A DNA stretch of 64,000 nt from Escherichia phage vB_EcoM-fFiEco06: the sequence record NC_054914.1; one strand, 5' to 3'. Each line of letters begins with the position of its first letter. The first letter of the stretch is position 1. Below are positions 3,923-39,959 of the stretch, piece after piece. The translations under genes were made by a program, and so were the position numbers. The notes beneath the pieces are model-generated. The model saw only the letters and a list, made by a program, of their open reading frames with translations, did not search any database and was not told the DNA's origin.

Positions 3923-5123
3923 ATTTTGTAATAATGTCAAACTGTTCTTTAAAGCAGAAGCTTGAATCTTGATGCTGATACAAAAATTCATATGCTTTTT
4001 CTCGCTCACGGTCATAAAGAGCTCGGTCAGATGACAGTTCTTTAATACGTTCAAACGTTGATTCCATATCATTTTCATCAAACCAAATGATACCGCTATC
4101 ATGCGAGGTCAAAGGAGTATTATCAACACGGAATTTTAAATTTTCGCCAGTAGATTTCCAAAATACCGGAATTGTTCCACATGCACCAAGCTCGAGATGA
4201 GTATATTCTAAAGAACGTTGCAGATATTTTTTATCCAACTTACTCAACTGATAACCAAATCCGGATTTACTCATGCGTTCAAGCATTTCGCTATTTACAT
4301 AACGGTCAAGAATTTGCGTTGGCAAATTAGGAGCAATTTTAATTTGGTCTACTTGATGAAGACGATAATACTCGTATGGAATTCCTTTTTCTTTAATAGG
4401 AATGAACGCTGGAGAACGTTCCAGACCTTCCATAATAGTACTTAGTCCTGCAGGTTTAAGATGTTTTTCATGAAAATCAAACATCTGATAAAAACCTTTC
4501 CATGTAGTCGTACGACCAATCCAACGGTTGATATTCATGTTAATTTCAGAAACATCTTTCCAGTAGGTTGACCGAACCTTCGCAATATCCATAGGAGGCT
4601 GAAAGTTATATACTGTCGGTGCTTCTTCAATATCATCAAACAGAGAAACAGTTTCTGGATACCATTCTTTCATCAGAACTTTATTAAAATCACCATTATC
4701 AGAATGACTAAAAATAACATCAGCTCGACGAACAGTTTCTTCTAATCCCAAATTTCGACGCAAAGAAAGAGAAGAATGGTCATGTTGATAAACTACAACA
4801 CGAACAGAAGGTTTAATGTTATCAATAATTTTTTTATAGTTATTAATAGTGTCTTCTTCAACCGAAGTAGCAGGAACTGAATTGATAATTAGAATATCAC
4901 AATCATTTACCAGCTTAAGTGTTTTATCATATTCTTTTGCCAATAAAACCGGAATTGAAAATGATTTATAATCATGCGCGCAATTACGAGTAAATGATTT
5001 ATCTTTAGCATAAACCAAAGTTACTTCATGACCATTTTTAATAAACCAATCACGTTGCTCGAGTGAGAATTTTGTTACACCACAACCTTCAAGACCTCGA
5101 GCCATAAAAATACATACTTTCAT
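3921..5123 (-). CDS. a-gt: DNA alpha-glucosyltransferase
   Basis: 400 aa; near-identical to T4 alpha-gt as recalled (N-terminus FMARGLEGCGVTKFSLEQRDWFIKNGHEV). Confidence 0.88.
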   Translation of the reverse strand: MKVCIFMARGLEGCGVTKFSLEQRDWFIKNGHEVTLVYAKDKSFTRNCAHDYKSFSIPVLLAKEYDKTLKLVNDCDILIINSVPATSVEEDTINNYKKIIDNIKPSVRVVVYQHDHSSLSLRRNLGLEETVRRADVIFSHSDNGDFNKVLMKEWYPETVSLFDDIEEAPTVYNFQPPMDIAKVRSTYWKDVSEINMNINRWIGRTTTWKGFYQMFDFHEKHLKPAGLSTIMEGLERSPAFIPIKEKGIPYEYYRLHQVDQIKIAPNLPTQILDRYVNSEMLERMSKSGFGYQLSKLDKKYLQRSLEYTHLELGACGTIPVFWKSTGENLKFRVDNTPLTSHDSGIIWFDENDMESTFERIKELSSDRALYDREREKAYEFLYQHQDSSFCFKEQFDIITK

Positions 5124-31234: not shown

Positions 31235-31651
31235 TTAAATGTAAATATTTTTGCCGTAATACTTATACCAGTGTGGCTTCATTAAAATTTTTTCATCGAG
31301 TCGTTGTTGACTCAACTTAATAGCTGATTTACATGGATTATAATCATTTTTCCATTCTACTGGAATATCGCTGATGTCAGGAACTTCAGTATCTTTTATA
31401 CTGAACCCGCGTTTTAAGCATTCCGTTATAATGTCCGATTGACGCTTTCGCAAAAATTCTAACTTATCGTAAAAGAAAGTAACATGACCAGAACCTAAAA
31501 TAAATTTAGAAGATATTTTAAAATCTTTAACGCGCTTACCGTTTGCCACATGCTTACGAACTATACCAAAAACACGCGGCAATTCACGGTATTCTGCGAT
31601 TAAATGTTGATCAGCAAGTTCAGATACTAAAGTCAAATTAATACGAGTCAT
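31235..31651 (-). CDS. denV: Endonuclease V (pyrimidine dimer DNA glycosylase)
   Basis: 138 aa; [17 protein letters not shown]...[10 protein letters not shown]. Confidence 0.92.
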
Positions 31652-31673
31652 TTTATCCCTCCAAGTAACTGTG

Positions 31674-31706
31674 AATATACTATCACAATTCTAGGAGAAA
31701 GTAAAC
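31674..31706 (-). promoter_or_regulatory. T4-type early promoter upstream of denV
   Basis: Minus strand GTTTACTTTCTCCTAGAATTGTGATAGTATATT. Confidence 0.55.
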
Positions 31707-31710
31707 AACT

Positions 31711-32241
<531 letters not shown>

Positions 32242-35118: not shown

Positions 35119-35407
35119 AGTATTTCCTTAGGTTAATTGAGATTTAAAATCCATGAGAGTATTATACTCCGGATAGTTTGTAAACTATTTCAACATCGCC
35201 TTTTGCTGCTTTATAACCTTCAGCCCAAGATACAACCGAGTTTTTATCCGAAGATTCAAATTCTGGCATTGGGCTTTCGCCAATGTTCACGCAGTATGTT
35301 TCTTCATTTTCGTCGAACCAAATAATTAAAGTAGTCATTTATTTCTCCGTTTTCTGTATTTGTTTTGATAAGTCTATAATAACACCGTCCTTGGCGTTTG
35401 TACACAA

Positions 35408-35683
35408 TTATTTCATATTATTGAAATATTCTTCTGCGATTTCATCGTTATCATGGTAAACTTTAGAAGACAGTTTAACATAACCTTCAGCAGTGAACAT
35501 GTTAATCACAACCTTTACAGTATACCACTGACCATCTTCATTACCCATTACTGCATAGGTTTCAAACATCGGATGGTCAGGACCGATAACTTTAATATCA
35601 TTCACTGTACGACCGAAATCTTCTGAAACACATTTCATAAAGAAGTTGAACAGTTCGCCGTAATTATCCATTTCATTCTCCAA
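35408..35683 (-). CDS. Hypothetical protein
   Basis: 91 aa; early promoter at 35711-35743. Confidence 0.45.
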   Translation of the reverse strand: MENEMDNYGELFNFFMKCVSEDFGRTVNDIKVIGPDHPMFETYAVMGNEDGQWYTVKVVINMFTAEGYVKLSSKVYHDNDEIAEEYFNNMK

Positions 35684-35870: not shown

Positions 35871-35906
35871 AGATACCAAAAAGCCCCAACCTTTTGGTCG
35901 GGGCTA
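35871..35906 (-). terminator. Rho-independent terminator (copy 1 of duplicated terminator)
   Basis: AGCCCCGACC-AAAAG-GUUGGGGCU followed by UUUUUGG; downstream of ORF 35913..36386. Confidence 0.7.
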
Positions 35907-35912
35907 AGAATG

Positions 35913-36386
35913 TTATTTGATTTGTTTAGCAGACCAAATGCGGTCTTTAATAATTTTTTGGATGTCTTCAACATACTCAAGAGAGTGAACATGTGGGTTA
36001 TCTTTGAAACTATAAGCACGAGCTAGCTTTTGGCCTTCAGTTTTGATTACTAAAAGCTCTTTAAGGATAGCTTCATATTTGGAGATAATTCCTTTAACAA
36101 TATTTTTCTCTTGTGTGACTTTAGGATCTGCTTTAGGAGCAGGTTTACCTGAAGCCTTTGCAAAAGCAGCTCCAGTAGCAACTAAACTTTTCCAAGCCAT
36201 ACTAACTGCATTCCCTGTAAATCCTTCGGCTTTCATATCACGAGCAAATTGGAATCGTGATTCATCGGAAGCATCTTTATAGGAATATTTACCCGCGGCA
36301 ATGGCAGCTTTTGCAACAGCTTGAATTTCAGTGCTAGATGCTTCATTTAACACCGCTTCATTTAAAAATTGAGTATATGATTTCAT
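35913..36386 (-). CDS. Internal-protein-like late gene (capsid-targeting N-terminus)
   Basis: 157 aa Ala/Lys-rich; N-terminus MKSYTQFLNE resembles the T4 capsid-targeting sequence MKTYQEFIAE; TATAAATA late promoter upstream. Confidence 0.5.
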   Translation of the reverse strand: MKSYTQFLNEAVLNEASSTEIQAVAKAAIAAGKYSYKDASDESRFQFARDMKAEGFTGNAVSMAWKSLVATGAAFAKASGKPAPKADPKVTQEKNIVKGIISKYEAILKELLVIKTEGQKLARAYSFKDNPHVHSLEYVEDIQKIIKDRIWSAKQIK

Positions 36387-36422
36387 CTTATTTCCTGTTT
36401 TAATTCGGGGTTTTAATATACT

Positions 36423-36430
36423 TATTTATA
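36423..36430 (-). promoter_or_regulatory. Late promoter TATAAATA upstream of the internal-protein-like gene
   Basis: Minus strand AGTATAAATAAG about 37 nt upstream of the ATG at 36386. Confidence 0.6.
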
Positions 36431-36460
36431 CTAAAAAGCCCCAACCTTTCGGTCGGGGCT
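36431..36460 (-). terminator. Rho-independent terminator (copy 2) ending the tRNA/stable-RNA transcription unit
   Basis: AGCCCCGACC-GAAAG-GUUGGGGCU followed by UUUUUAG; about 30 nt shared with copy 1. Confidence 0.7.
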
Positions 36461-36776
36461 AAGCCTTGCGGCAACCTTGTCGGGGTTCCACCTGCTAAGG
36501 CAAGTGTTTGTACGAAACGCCGGGATTCGAACCCGGTTATTAAGCAGTTGACGCTACTCAATATTTTTAAAAGGCCATATCTCGACCATATCCGAACGTT
36601 CCGTCAAAAACGCTACTCGGCTTACGGCAAAGATATTTCCTCGAATCGATAATTCGGTGCGCCGTTTCTGCTGTGATATAAGGGGACATTAACAAAACAT
36701 AAAGATTTATTAATACCAGTCCTTAAACAGGGAACATCAGTCCGACGACTTGCCGGTAGCGACCCGGCTTCTTGTC
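36461..36776 (-). ncRNA. Stable RNA region (T4 species 1/2, rnaC/rnaD-like)
   Basis: Non-coding stretch between tRNA-Arg and the terminator, containing a tRNA-like T-arm (GGGTTCGAATCCCGG); position as for the T4 stable RNAs. Confidence 0.4.
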
Positions 36777-36852
36777 TGGTCGAGGCAGTAGGGATCGAAC
36801 CTACGACCCAGGACTTAGAAGGTCCTTGCTCTTCCTTCTGAGCTATGCCTCG
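36777..36852 (-). tRNA. tRNA-Arg (anticodon UCU)
   Basis: Hand-folded cloverleaf: acceptor CGAGGCA/UGCCUCG, anticodon loop CUUCUAA, T-arm GGTTCGATCC, encoded CCA. Confidence 0.8.
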
Positions 36853-36856
36853 TATT

Positions 36857-36931
36857 TGGCGGACGTGATAGGATTCGAACCTATAACCAATCGCTTAACA
36901 GGCGATCGCTCTGCCATTGAGCTACACATCC
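36857..36931 (-). tRNA. tRNA-Asn (anticodon GUU)
   Basis: Acceptor GGATGTG/CACGTCC, anticodon stem ATCGC/GCGAT with loop CTGTTAA, T-loop TTCGAAT, CCA. Confidence 0.7.
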
Positions 36932-36935
36932 AAAT

Positions 36936-37022
36936 TGGTGGGGAGTGGTGGAGTCGAACCACCCGAGTCGCAATGACAATGAATTTACAGTCCACACCGC
37001 TACCTCTACGGGATAACTCCCC
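36936..37022 (-). tRNA. tRNA-Tyr (anticodon GUA), long variable arm
   Basis: 87 nt; acceptor GGGGAGT/ACTCCCC, anticodon loop CTGTAAA, T-arm GGTGGTTCGACTCCACC, CCA. Confidence 0.65.
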
Positions 37023-37031
37023 AAATTAATT

Positions 37032-37106
37032 TGGTGGCCCTGGGTGGAATTGAACCACCATCTGGCGATTATGAGTCGCTTGCTTGAACCTTCCAGCTAC
37101 AGGGCC
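37032..37106 (-). tRNA. tRNA-Ile/Met (anticodon CAU)
   Basis: Acceptor GGCCCTG/CAGGGCC, anticodon loop CTCATAA, CCA. Confidence 0.75.
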
Positions 37107-37107
37107 T

Positions 37108-37183
37108 TGGTGCTGATTGACGGAATCGAACCGCCGACCTTCTCATTACAAGTGAGTTGCTCTACCTACTGAGCTAAATCAGC
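37108..37183 (-). tRNA. tRNA-Thr (anticodon UGU)
   Basis: Acceptor GCTGATT/AATCAGC, anticodon loop CTTGTAA, T-arm GGTTCGATTCC, CCA. Confidence 0.8.
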
Positions 37184-37188
37184 AAAAC

Positions 37189-37278
37189 TGGCGGAGGCGA
37201 TAGGATTTGAACCTATGAGTCGCCGGAGCGACTGCCGGTTTTCAAGACCGGTGCATTAAACCACTCTGCCACGCCTCC
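37189..37278 (-). tRNA. tRNA-Ser (anticodon UGA), long variable arm
   Basis: 90 nt; acceptor GGAGGCG/CGCCTCC, anticodon loop CTTGAAA. Confidence 0.8.
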
Positions 37279-37280
37279 AG

Positions 37281-37354
37281 TCTCCGTGGCAGGATTTGAA
37301 CCTACGACATTCTGCTCCCAAAGCAGACGCTCTACCAAACTGAGCTACACGGAG
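37281..37354 (-). tRNA. tRNA-Pro (anticodon UGG), CCA not encoded
   Basis: Acceptor CTCCGTG/CACGGAG, anticodon loop TTTGGGA; separated from tRNA-Ser by 2 nt. Confidence 0.8.
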
Positions 37355-37364
37355 TAAATTAAAT

Positions 37365-37438
<74 letters not shown>

Positions 37439-37443
37439 AAATT

Positions 37444-37530
37444 TGGTGCGAGAAGTGGGACTCGAACCCACAAGGAAATCATTCCGCAGCATTTTAAGTG
37501 CTGTGCCTTTACCAATTTGGCCATTCTCGC
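37444..37530 (-). tRNA. tRNA-Leu (anticodon UAA), long variable arm
   Basis: 87 nt; matches T4 tRNA-Leu as recalled (GCGAGAATGGTCAAATTGG...). Confidence 0.85.
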
Positions 37531-37531
37531 G

Positions 37532-37604
37532 CTGGGAATAAAGGACTCGAACCTTTGCATCCTGGAATCAAAATCCAGTGCCTTACCAACTTGGCTAATT
37601 CCCA
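37532..37604 (-). tRNA. tRNA-Gln (anticodon UUG), CCA not encoded
   Basis: TGGGAATTAGCCAAGTTGGTAAGGCACTGGATTTTGATTCCAGG...; abuts tRNA-Leu with a 1-nt spacer. Confidence 0.85.
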
Positions 37605-38633: not shown

Positions 38634-38867
38634 TTATTTTTTACGAAAAATTGATTTATTTTCTGCTGCCCATTTTTCAATAACTGCAGCAGGACCAGTA
38701 ACAACAATTTTATCACCGTAATCTTCTGCGGCGAGTTGACCGAAATTATCTAATGCATCACGAAGAACTCCATGAGGCATTTCACCCATTTTATCTTTCT
38801 TGCCAGTGTAAATAAACTCAACTTTTACATCAGCAGTTTCAGCAATAAATTCTTGGTAAGTTTTCAT
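38634..38867 (-). CDS. Internal protein (ip-like) with canonical capsid-targeting sequence
   Basis: Start taken at the second Met: MKTYQEFIAE matches the T4 capsid-targeting sequence as recalled; own early promoter. Confidence 0.55.
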   Translation of the reverse strand: MKTYQEFIAETADVKVEFIYTGKKDKMGEMPHGVLRDALDNFGQLAAEDYGDKIVVTGPAAVIEKWAAENKSIFRKK

Positions 38868-38898
38868 TTTGATTTCCATTTGGTTTTGTTTTGATAGG

Positions 38899-38931
38899 GT
38901 AATAGTATCACAACTAAAACCCTATGTAAAC
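38899..38931 (-). promoter_or_regulatory. T4-type early promoter with inverted repeat around the -10
   Basis: ATAGGGT ... ACCCTAT flanks the -10; drives the ip-like gene at 38634-38867. Confidence 0.55.
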
Positions 38932-38943
38932 AACTTTGTGAAA

Positions 38944-39201
38944 TTATTTTAAATCTTCTAATCGTTTCTTCATCTTAGAGCCATTTTTAGCAATTTCTCC
39001 TGCATCGGAGCATAATGCTAAAAGTGCTTTAACTTTAGTTTGGTCTCCTTTAAAAGATGAAGGATCGACCGCAGCAGCAAGTTCTTTAATACGAGAGAAA
39101 AGACGCTCAGCTTCAGCTAAAGCCATTCCAAGCTTTACTTCCATACCGTGGGAAGATTCAGTGATAGTAGTTTTTGTAGCAAACTCTTTGAAAGTTTTCA
39201 T
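38944..39201 (-). CDS. Internal protein (ip-like) with capsid-targeting-like N-terminus
   Basis: 85 aa; MKTFKEFATKTTITE with an I-x-E cleavage-type motif; own early promoter. Confidence 0.5.
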   Translation of the reverse strand: MKTFKEFATKTTITESSHGMEVKLGMALAEAERLFSRIKELAAAVDPSSFKGDQTKVKALLALCSDAGEIAKNGSKMKKRLEDLK

Positions 39202-39229
39202 TTTTATTTTCCTAATTAATTTTGATGAG

Positions 39230-39262
39230 GTAATAGTATCACTACCTCATCAGTATGTAAAC
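39230..39262 (-). promoter_or_regulatory. T4-type early promoter with 9-bp inverted repeat around the -10
   Basis: GATGAGGTA ... TACCTCATC flanks the -10; compensatory changes relative to 38601-38633. Confidence 0.55.
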
Positions 39263-39274
39263 AACTTTGTGAAA

Positions 39275-39959
<685 letters not shown>

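Follow-up and report, generated by a model that had tools for sequence, protein, structure and literature searches.

We analysed a window of 64,000 nt (the whole stretch of DNA considered here) from Escherichia phage vB_EcoM-fFiEco06, a Tequatrovirus (NC_054914.1), and focused on a 157-aa open reading frame (ORF) located between e.8 and the rnaC/rnaD/tRNA cluster. The product of this ORF likely represents a new family of T4-type internal proteins, which would be packaged into the head, processed, injected into the next host and, most likely, directed against restriction. We infer packaging via the leader, cleavage and injection from the sequence, and the anti-restriction role from analogy. The evidence consists of a capsid-targeting leader, a conserved late promoter, the detection of a near-identical protein in virions, and the presence or absence of the whole unit between two copies of a terminator.

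The putative capsid-targeting leader

Genetic work on IPIII showed that residues 4 and 7 of its leader MKTYQEFIAE mainly govern capsid targeting, while residues 8 and 10 govern processing (PMC9026906). The ORF product, which starts with MKSYTQFLNEAVLNEASS, carries Y4, F7, L8 and E10 at these positions. L-x-E motifs are present at residues 8-10, 13-15 and 108-110, so that a gp21-type L/I-x-E site stands at the end of the leader; L8-N9-E10 and L13-N14-E15 are both followed by Ala. Accordingly placed cuts would give Ala11 (AVLNEASSTEIQAVAK) or Ala16 (ASSTEIQAVAK) as mature N-terminus. The leader resembles an internal tandem duplication (FLNEA / VLNEA) with two protease-type sites. Other leaders of the family have a single site (MKSYAEFLTE/Q) or a shortened form (MKTYNEFLMTE/A), so that propeptides of different lengths occur in the family.

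The first ten residues of all 626 Met-started ORF candidates in the window were scored against MKTYQEFIAE with BLOSUM62. With a score of 30, the ORF was joint second; an annotated internal-protein gene alone ranked above it, and the next best score was 20 (mean -1.7, standard deviation 7.1). A leader pattern search among the same candidates returned three matches, namely the ORF and two genes at the ipI locus, both of which carry the annotation of internal head protein in a near-identical phage. When the pattern was relaxed, it retrieved exactly ipI, ipII and ipIII in T4, and Ip4, ipI, Ip5 and the gene at the e.8/rnaC locus in RB14. The relaxed pattern finds all known ip genes in T4, RB14 and the Yersinia phage fD1, with one false positive among more than 1000 candidates at the fetched loci.

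The leader is also the best conserved part of the protein. In an alignment of 19 family members, whose identity from one subfamily to another is only 23-31%, four columns are invariant, M1 and F7 among them. Conservation is highest in residues 1-10 (0.74, compared to 0.48-0.59 elsewhere), and the processing residues L8 and E10 are found in 89% and 84% of the members. We compared 10 IMG/VR loci anchored on e.8 with those of RB14, fD1, ASO78A and a Klebsiella phage. Two of these loci, L009 with a 205-aa gene and L010 with a gene of the 157-aa type, match from the terminator stem to codon 16 except for one base, a stretch that includes the promoter and the ribosome site. They diverge sharply right after ...VL(N/T)EA, which is the end of the predicted propeptide. 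Judged from this alignment, the break is a recombination junction at the leader. As the leader is conserved and the sequences part at the end of the propeptide, the leader behaves as a separately constrained module.

The same observation could be read differently, with the leader as a recombination relic acquired from ip genes that has no function in packaging, and the product as a late cytoplasmic protein. The 5' module is indeed shared through recombination between family members, and its role in packaging is a predicted one. However, a relic would decay, whereas here residues 1, 7, 8 and 10, the critical ones, persist in the most conserved part of the protein, and the protein was detected in fD1 virions. 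We regard the relic as highly improbable, the least probable of all readings weighed here.

The fD1 protein in question is g140, which is identical to the ORF product at 155 of 157 residues. It was listed as particle-associated using LC-MS/MS, and the Ip4-type g129 and the ipI-type g146 of the same phage are likewise marked as particle-associated (PMC8309999, Table S3). This suggests that fD1 produces the protein and that it co-purifies with virions, although the dataset is not specific. The preliminary description of this DNA had named virion proteomics as a way to check the product; the fD1 listing offers support of an unspecific kind. Virion proteomics of fPS-65/fPS-90 and fHe-Yen9-01 was not found in the literature searched.

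A late-promoter unit between two terminators

The octamer TATAAATA follows directly after the T run of the upstream terminator and is the sole promoter-like site between this terminator and the gene. The octamer is not more frequent in the AT-rich window than expected by chance (13 found, 10.8 expected). A single match therefore proves little on its own, and the meaning of the promoter has to be judged by its conservation across phages. A late promoter was present upstream of 16 out of 16 family genes from 13 phages, beginning 34-48 nt before the ATG, in the form TATAAATA in 11 genes and AATAAATA/GATAAATA in the other 5. In an alignment of five loci, the octamer was invariant while its surroundings varied. 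Where one of these family genes comes first after the terminator, the late promoter follows the T run immediately, and it is also kept in a Klebsiella Jiaodavirus whose terminator sequence differs. Such a promoter would time the synthesis of the ORF product, through late transcription, to prohead assembly.

The two terminators form a 36-nt direct repeat (34 of 36 positions identical) with a spacing of 555 bp. This repeat is present only twice in the 64 kb, with 0 copies expected by chance. Both hairpins consist of 10 pairs, a 4-nt loop (GAAA or AAAA) and a T run. Their predicted free energies are -20.3 and -20.5 kcal/mol, and none of 200 shuffled sequences folded as well. The GC content of the cassette is unremarkable (0.37-0.39).

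When the interval from e.8 to rnaC was aligned with that of T4, the flanks were near-identical, but T4 has one terminator and no gene. The surplus in the window consists of the late promoter, the ORF and the second terminator, and its length equals the 555-bp spacing of the repeat. Since this extra unit ends with the second terminator, the upstream copy is, by comparison with T4, the ordinary terminator of the tRNA/rnaD/rnaC unit and matches the single one of T4. The preliminary description had pictured a late-promoter gene for an Ala/Lys-rich product of 157 aa (24 Ala and 21 Lys by our count) with a capsid-targeting-like start and L-x-E motifs, bracketed by two near-identical terminators. All these elements are present, the promoter where it had been placed and the terminators within a few bases of the positions given there.

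In its architecture, the unit is similar to the promoter-early stem-loop (PeSL) cassettes of RB49 and phi1 and to the 'morons' of lambdoid phages (PMC2839356): it consists of one gene, equipped with a promoter and a terminator of its own, and is bounded by repeated regulatory sequence. The repeats of PeSLs and morons can mediate insertion, deletion and shuffling without disturbing the neighbours, and the cassette repeat could do likewise. In contrast to PeSLs, which combine a sigma-70-like early promoter with a stem-loop and are scattered, the repeat found here is a terminator alone, the promoter is late, and the unit occupies a fixed position across genera.

The e.8/rnaC junction and the phrog_2280 family

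Several T4-like genera have the family, with one or two copies per locus, and every locus inspected places it downstream of the tRNA cluster. The junction is empty in T4. In the window, fD1 and ASO78A, its only occupant is the 157-aa type, and in RB14 it is a 187-aa type (RB14ncORF136c, MKTYAEFLTEAAK...); the 157-aa and 187-aa types stand in tandem in three loci (L006, L007 and L013). JS98-like phages have an unrelated 184-aa predicted membrane ORF in addition to either a 205-aa type (MKTYNEFLNESVLNEAG...) or a 154-157-aa type, and the Klebsiella Jiaodavirus carries a fragmented homologue downstream of its tRNA genes.

To this comparison we added a survey of an evenly spaced sample of 60 out of 697 records matching the T4 junction, with the spans read by eye. 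The empty arrangement was found in 8 of the 60 records (T4, RB3, F2, BP32 and others). A span of ~912 bp, corresponding to a single 157-aa unit, was found in ~22, a span of ~1040 bp (187-aa unit) in ~4, and the tandem span of 1591 bp in 3; the remaining sampled records match only part of the junction. The empty state is a minority among the sampled junctions. With the family present here in many genera and the site seldom empty, T4 probably lost the unit through recombination between the terminator copies, rather than the phage studied here having gained it.

The 187-aa paralogue ends in a different terminator hairpin, CCCTATC-TAAA-TGATAGGG followed by a T run (L006, 2770-2815; RB14, L003, ~5060-5100). 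The 187-aa and 157-aa units meet the common flank again at one and the same ...GCTTTTTGGTATCTAGGCC junction. This identical return to the flank suggests that the crossover point lies within the G-rich 3' arm and the T run of the terminators.

All three types gave full-length matches to phrog_2280, a PHROGs family of unknown function without a functional label, with E-values of 2e-60 for the 157-aa type (2.3e-60 over residues 1-157 of the ORF product), 1.4e-53 for the RB14 187-aa type and 5.8e-60 for the JS98-type 205-aa protein. The 187-aa group (ORF187) and the 205-aa group (ORF205) were aligned by hhalign with 95% probability over 169 columns. With BLASTP, the bodies of the 157-aa and 187-aa types showed no similarity, and those of the 157-aa and 205-aa types a weak match (E = 1e-3, leader removed). 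Three proteins (P0009, P0010 and P0015, from Yersinia and Klebsiella phages, plus one further relative) join an N-domain of the 157-aa type (AGKYSYKD..SRFQFARDM) to a C-domain of the 205-aa type (TPDLY). We had considered RB14 ORF187 and the JS98-type ORF205 as unrelated cargos behind a common leader and dropped this view. Based on the shared phrog_2280 matches, the hhalign alignment and the domain-mixing intermediates, the 157-, 187- and 205-aa proteins form a single fast-diverging mosaic family.

Identity is 76-82% within the 157-aa type and ~25% between types, compared to 80-100% for e.8 in the same loci. Using tblastn, we found 510 phage records for the 157-aa type, 165 for the 187-aa type and 139 for the 205-aa type, in phages of hosts that include Escherichia, Shigella, Yersinia, Klebsiella, Enterobacter, Serratia, Erwinia, Kosakonia and Cronobacter. 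Among the records listed, the proteins were hypothetical or unannotated, save for one bare 'Phage protein' label, and an annotation as internal protein was found in none of the phage records inspected.

These results bear on the idea of the preliminary description that the unit is a self-contained, possibly exchangeable cassette, to be checked by its presence or absence across T-even genomes. Presence and absence bounded by the repeated terminator were indeed observed: T4 lacks exactly the 555-bp unit, and other phages have one or two. The idea has to be modified in two respects, as the alternative occupants belong to one family and the empty state represented by T4 is the less common one.

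Two further observations concern the occupants of the junction. The 184-aa ORF has a hydrophobic N-terminus and belongs to phrog_2143 (function unknown); it was found in L009 (1636-2190), L010 (2326-2880) and L012 (~2220-2879), with its place relative to the leader-bearing gene (upstream or downstream) varying from phage to phage. L009 and L011 have a separate TATAAATA for this ORF, located 34 nt upstream of its ATG. In the Klebsiella phage KpV477 (L015, 2841-3231), the family member is annotated as the overlapping short coding sequences kpv477_139 and kpv477_138, and the leader-bearing frame comprises only 78 aa. This gene may be decaying, or the sequence may contain a sequencing frameshift.

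Proposed function and genomic neighbourhood

The predicted mature protein (residues 11-157 or 16-157) is basic, with a pI of 9.5 and 20 Lys in the 142 residues of the shorter form. A structure was modelled with AlphaFold using the 19-sequence alignment (predicted local distance difference test score 79.2, leader of low confidence). In the model, three helices (18-30, 41-53 and 59-71) form a small N-domain, which a disordered Pro/Lys/Ala linker (76-87) joins to a long helical hairpin (88-124 and 134-154). No fold similarity to IPI-III or to any solved structure was found, and Pfam and PADLOC gave nothing above noise for the protein; the predicted fold, taken as modelled, offers no functional lead. 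A phmmer search against 1.8 billion representatives returned only relatives from T4-like phages, apart from four long immunoglobulin (Ig)-repeat proteins (P0017-P0020) that matched via an 'AAGSYSYKAF' repeat. We rejected these as chance, repeat-inflated matches because their domains are beta-rich and the query is all-helical. The sole PDB profile match, a designer pentatricopeptide repeat (PPR) protein, had no significant single stretch and was discarded as a repeat/low-complexity artefact.

Internal proteins of T-even phages are known as diverse defence proteins whose only common feature is the capsid-targeting sequence (PMC3012670). Ip1, Ip2 and Ip3 are inhibitors, each of a different GmrSD type IV enzyme, and the corresponding study speaks of 'the two Ip loci' (Silas et al. 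2025, PMC12373910). Phage Bas37 has two genes at the ipI locus, and one of them, the leader-bearing Bas37_0260, encodes an inhibitor of McrBC (bioRxiv 10.1101/2025.11.20.689424). Removal of its leader does not prevent IPIII from acting in the host cytoplasm (PMC9391042). The ORF shares with IPI, IPII and IPIII of T4 and with Ip4 and Ip5 a MKTYQEFIAE-type leader followed by an L/I-x-E site. Like the T4-type internal proteins, its product is small and non-essential, has a dissimilar body and is variably present between close relatives, and its gene is bracketed by a repeated regulatory sequence. Unlike the T4-type ip genes, it is located at a third site (e.8/rnaC) instead of the ipI or ipII/ipIII loci, and it has GC-rich intrinsic terminators, a canonical late promoter and a duplicated cleavage motif. 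The closest parallel in one respect is Bas37_0260, which also bears the leader and otherwise lacks homology to IPI-III; it demonstrates that newly recognised leader-bearing genes can be restriction inhibitors. In contrast to the ORF, it is found at the classical ipI locus and its target was shown experimentally.

Taken together, the proposed sequence of events would be as follows. Late in infection, the gp55-dependent promoter TATAAATA would drive a short monocistronic transcript ending at the second terminator. The leader MKSYTQFLNE would carry the protein into the prohead scaffolding core, where the prohead protease gp21 would cut after Glu10 and/or Glu15 (L-N-E/A). This would leave a basic, Lys/Ala-rich, all-helical protein of ~15.5-16 kDa in the head, to be injected with the DNA into the next host. 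There it would most likely block a modification-dependent (type IV) nuclease before phage genes are expressed. By analogy with Ip1-3 and Bas37_0260, the protein is probably an inhibitor of a modification-dependent restriction enzyme. We favour this task on account of the four characterised precedents, the rapid mosaic evolution of the family and its dispensability in T4.

Several points weigh against the reading as an injected internal protein. The fD1 list comprises 113 proteins and also holds DenV, lysozyme e, NudE, e.5 and e.6 (PMC8309999), and the presence of such non-structural proteins makes it weak evidence for packaging. The position of the cassette is not one of the two published Ip loci, and the early-promoter/stem-loop elements of these loci are missing from it: the ip genes of the window and of T4 have a repeated early promoter of the GTTTAC...TACTAT type with an overlapping AT-rich stem-loop and no TATAAATA nearby. 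The third L-x-E motif (108-110) could lead to further cleavage, and the gene for the prohead protease is outside the window, which stops in gene 17. BLASTP against T4 IPI, IPII and IPIII and RB14 Ip4 revealed no similarity of the body, a result that is expected as internal proteins share only the leader. Finally, packaging via the leader, cleavage and injection are predicted for this product from its sequence. The preliminary description had proposed an uncharacterised, internal-protein-like and injected product; its internal-protein character now has the leader residues, the late promoter and the fD1 detection behind it, while the steps from packaging to injection keep the status of predictions.

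The basic body would also suit a packaged internal protein with a general physical role, such as neutralising DNA charge or assisting packing and ejection, and without a specific defence target. Solid-state nuclear magnetic resonance of T4 showed that lysines of internal proteins contact DNA phosphates (PMC3012670); the linker is rich in Pro, Lys and Ala, and the same position of the family in many genera would fit a housekeeping task. Yet the identity between family members falls to ~25% where e.8 retains 80-100%, the family is mosaic, T4, RB3 and others dispense with it, and each of the four capsid-targeted proteins that have been tested proved to inhibit restriction specifically. A purely physical role thus seems rather unlikely to us.

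The three L-x-E sites, one of them inside a long C-terminal helix, and the coiled-coil-like helical hairpin, which generically resembles scaffold-type folds, would be in line with an assembly or scaffold accessory of the prohead core that is degraded and expelled at maturation and never injected. We consider this very unlikely, given that a near-identical protein was detected in mature fD1 virions, that T4 heads assemble normally without the gene, and that rapid evolution of the body is unusual for an assembly factor.

If the product is an injected internal protein, phrog_2280 might represent a third, overlooked arsenal of injected effectors. Its rapidly exchanged N- and C-terminal helical domains would be aimed at a host defence other than GmrSD and McrBC, or a conserved N-domain would be the effector, with specificity provided by the exchangeable C-terminal hairpin; on this account the arsenal was missed because T4 lost its copy. 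We mention this extension as a doubtful possibility.

The literature of 2010 and 2025 confines leader-bearing ip genes to two loci, which makes e.8/rnaC a third. We found no paper on this site or on the phrog_2280 family in a search that did not cover Repoila et al. 1994. What is new is the connection of phrog_2280 with a capsid-targeting leader and late expression, that is, a new family and not a new kind of system. Perhaps the family went unnoticed because the model phage T4 lacks it. All four capsid-targeted T-even proteins with known targets inhibit modification-dependent restriction and help to set the host range. With members in several hundred sequenced T4-like genomes, the family offers ready candidates for injected anti-defence proteins, and it suggests a reason why wild T4-like phages may plate on hosts where T4 fails. 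It also allows the annotation of therapeutic phage genomes to be corrected.

The coordinates of the cassette and its surroundings are compiled in Table 1.

Table 1. Features of the cassette and of related loci in the window (slashes mark predicted cuts).
Feature	Position	Strand	Remarks
157-aa protein coding sequence (phrog_2280 member)	35913..36386	-	predicted mature form 142-147 aa, pI ~9.5
Putative capsid-targeting propeptide MKSYTQFLNE/AVLNE/	36342..36386 (codons 1-15)	-	two L-N-E prohead-protease-type sites
Shine-Dalgarno sequence AGGAAA	36391..36396	-	4 nt upstream of ATG; AGGAAA kept in 5/5 aligned loci
T4-type late promoter TATAAATA	36423..36430	-	starts 44 nt upstream of ATG
Upstream terminator repeat copy	36428..36463	-	hairpin 36460-36437 + T run
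Downstream terminator repeat copy, cassette end	35873..35908	-	hairpin 35905-35882 + T run
rnaD + rnaC stable-RNA genes	36461..36776	-	close alignment with T4 genes; downstream of tRNA-Arg (36777-36852)
e.8 homologue	35411..35671	-	99% identical to T4 e.8
Empty ipII/ipIII site	31652..31713		62-bp gap between denV (31241-31651) and e (31714-32205)
Two ipI-locus genes	38634..39201	-	77-aa gene 38634-38867 (listed ORF to 38879); Ip5-like 85-aa gene 38944-39201

At the classical loci, the ipII/ipIII position between denV and e is empty, as had been described before, and T4 ipI, ipII and ipIII gave no tblastn match anywhere in the window. As the phage has neither ipII nor ipIII, its set of injected proteins differs from that of T4. 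At the ipI locus, the 77-aa MKTYQEFIAE protein belongs to phrog_8111 and the Ip5-like 85-aa protein to phrog_3499. Each of the two genes follows a repeated element, AAAATAATTTCACAAAGTTGTTTACAT...GATACTATTACC, made up of an early promoter and an overlapping stem-loop, and a third copy, shorter than the others, comes after the second gene (38634-39300, minus strand).

Over 1 kb, the region is 100% identical to Escherichia phage vB_EcoM-fHoEco02 and other Tequatrovirus genomes. The T4 gene order is kept from vs.6-vs.8 through denV, e, nudE, e.2-e.6 and e.8 to the stable RNAs and the tRNA cluster, and continues as in T4 with trna.2-4, the ipI locus, 57B, 57A and gene 1; all of these genes are encoded by the minus strand. 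We identified rnaC and rnaD by alignment to T4, as Rfam had no match for either here; in this region Rfam found only tRNA genes and sub-threshold matches within the tRNA cluster. This cluster (36777-37604) is an uninterrupted run of ten genes, including tRNAs for Asn and Tyr and a tRNA with a CAT anticodon that is annotated as tRNA-Ile in relatives. In T4, with its eight tRNAs, segB, a homing endonuclease gene, separates tRNA-Arg from tRNA-Ile; segB gave no tblastn match within the window.

Near e.8, there is a promoter-like site (35742-35714), whose homologue in phage ASO78A carries the annotation of a T4 early promoter. T4 e.7 had no tblastn match within the window. Between e.6 and e.8 lies a 58-aa ORF (35162-35338, minus strand), whose counterpart in the near-identical ASO78A is annotated as similar to RB14ORF134; this is a further small indel in the same stretch.

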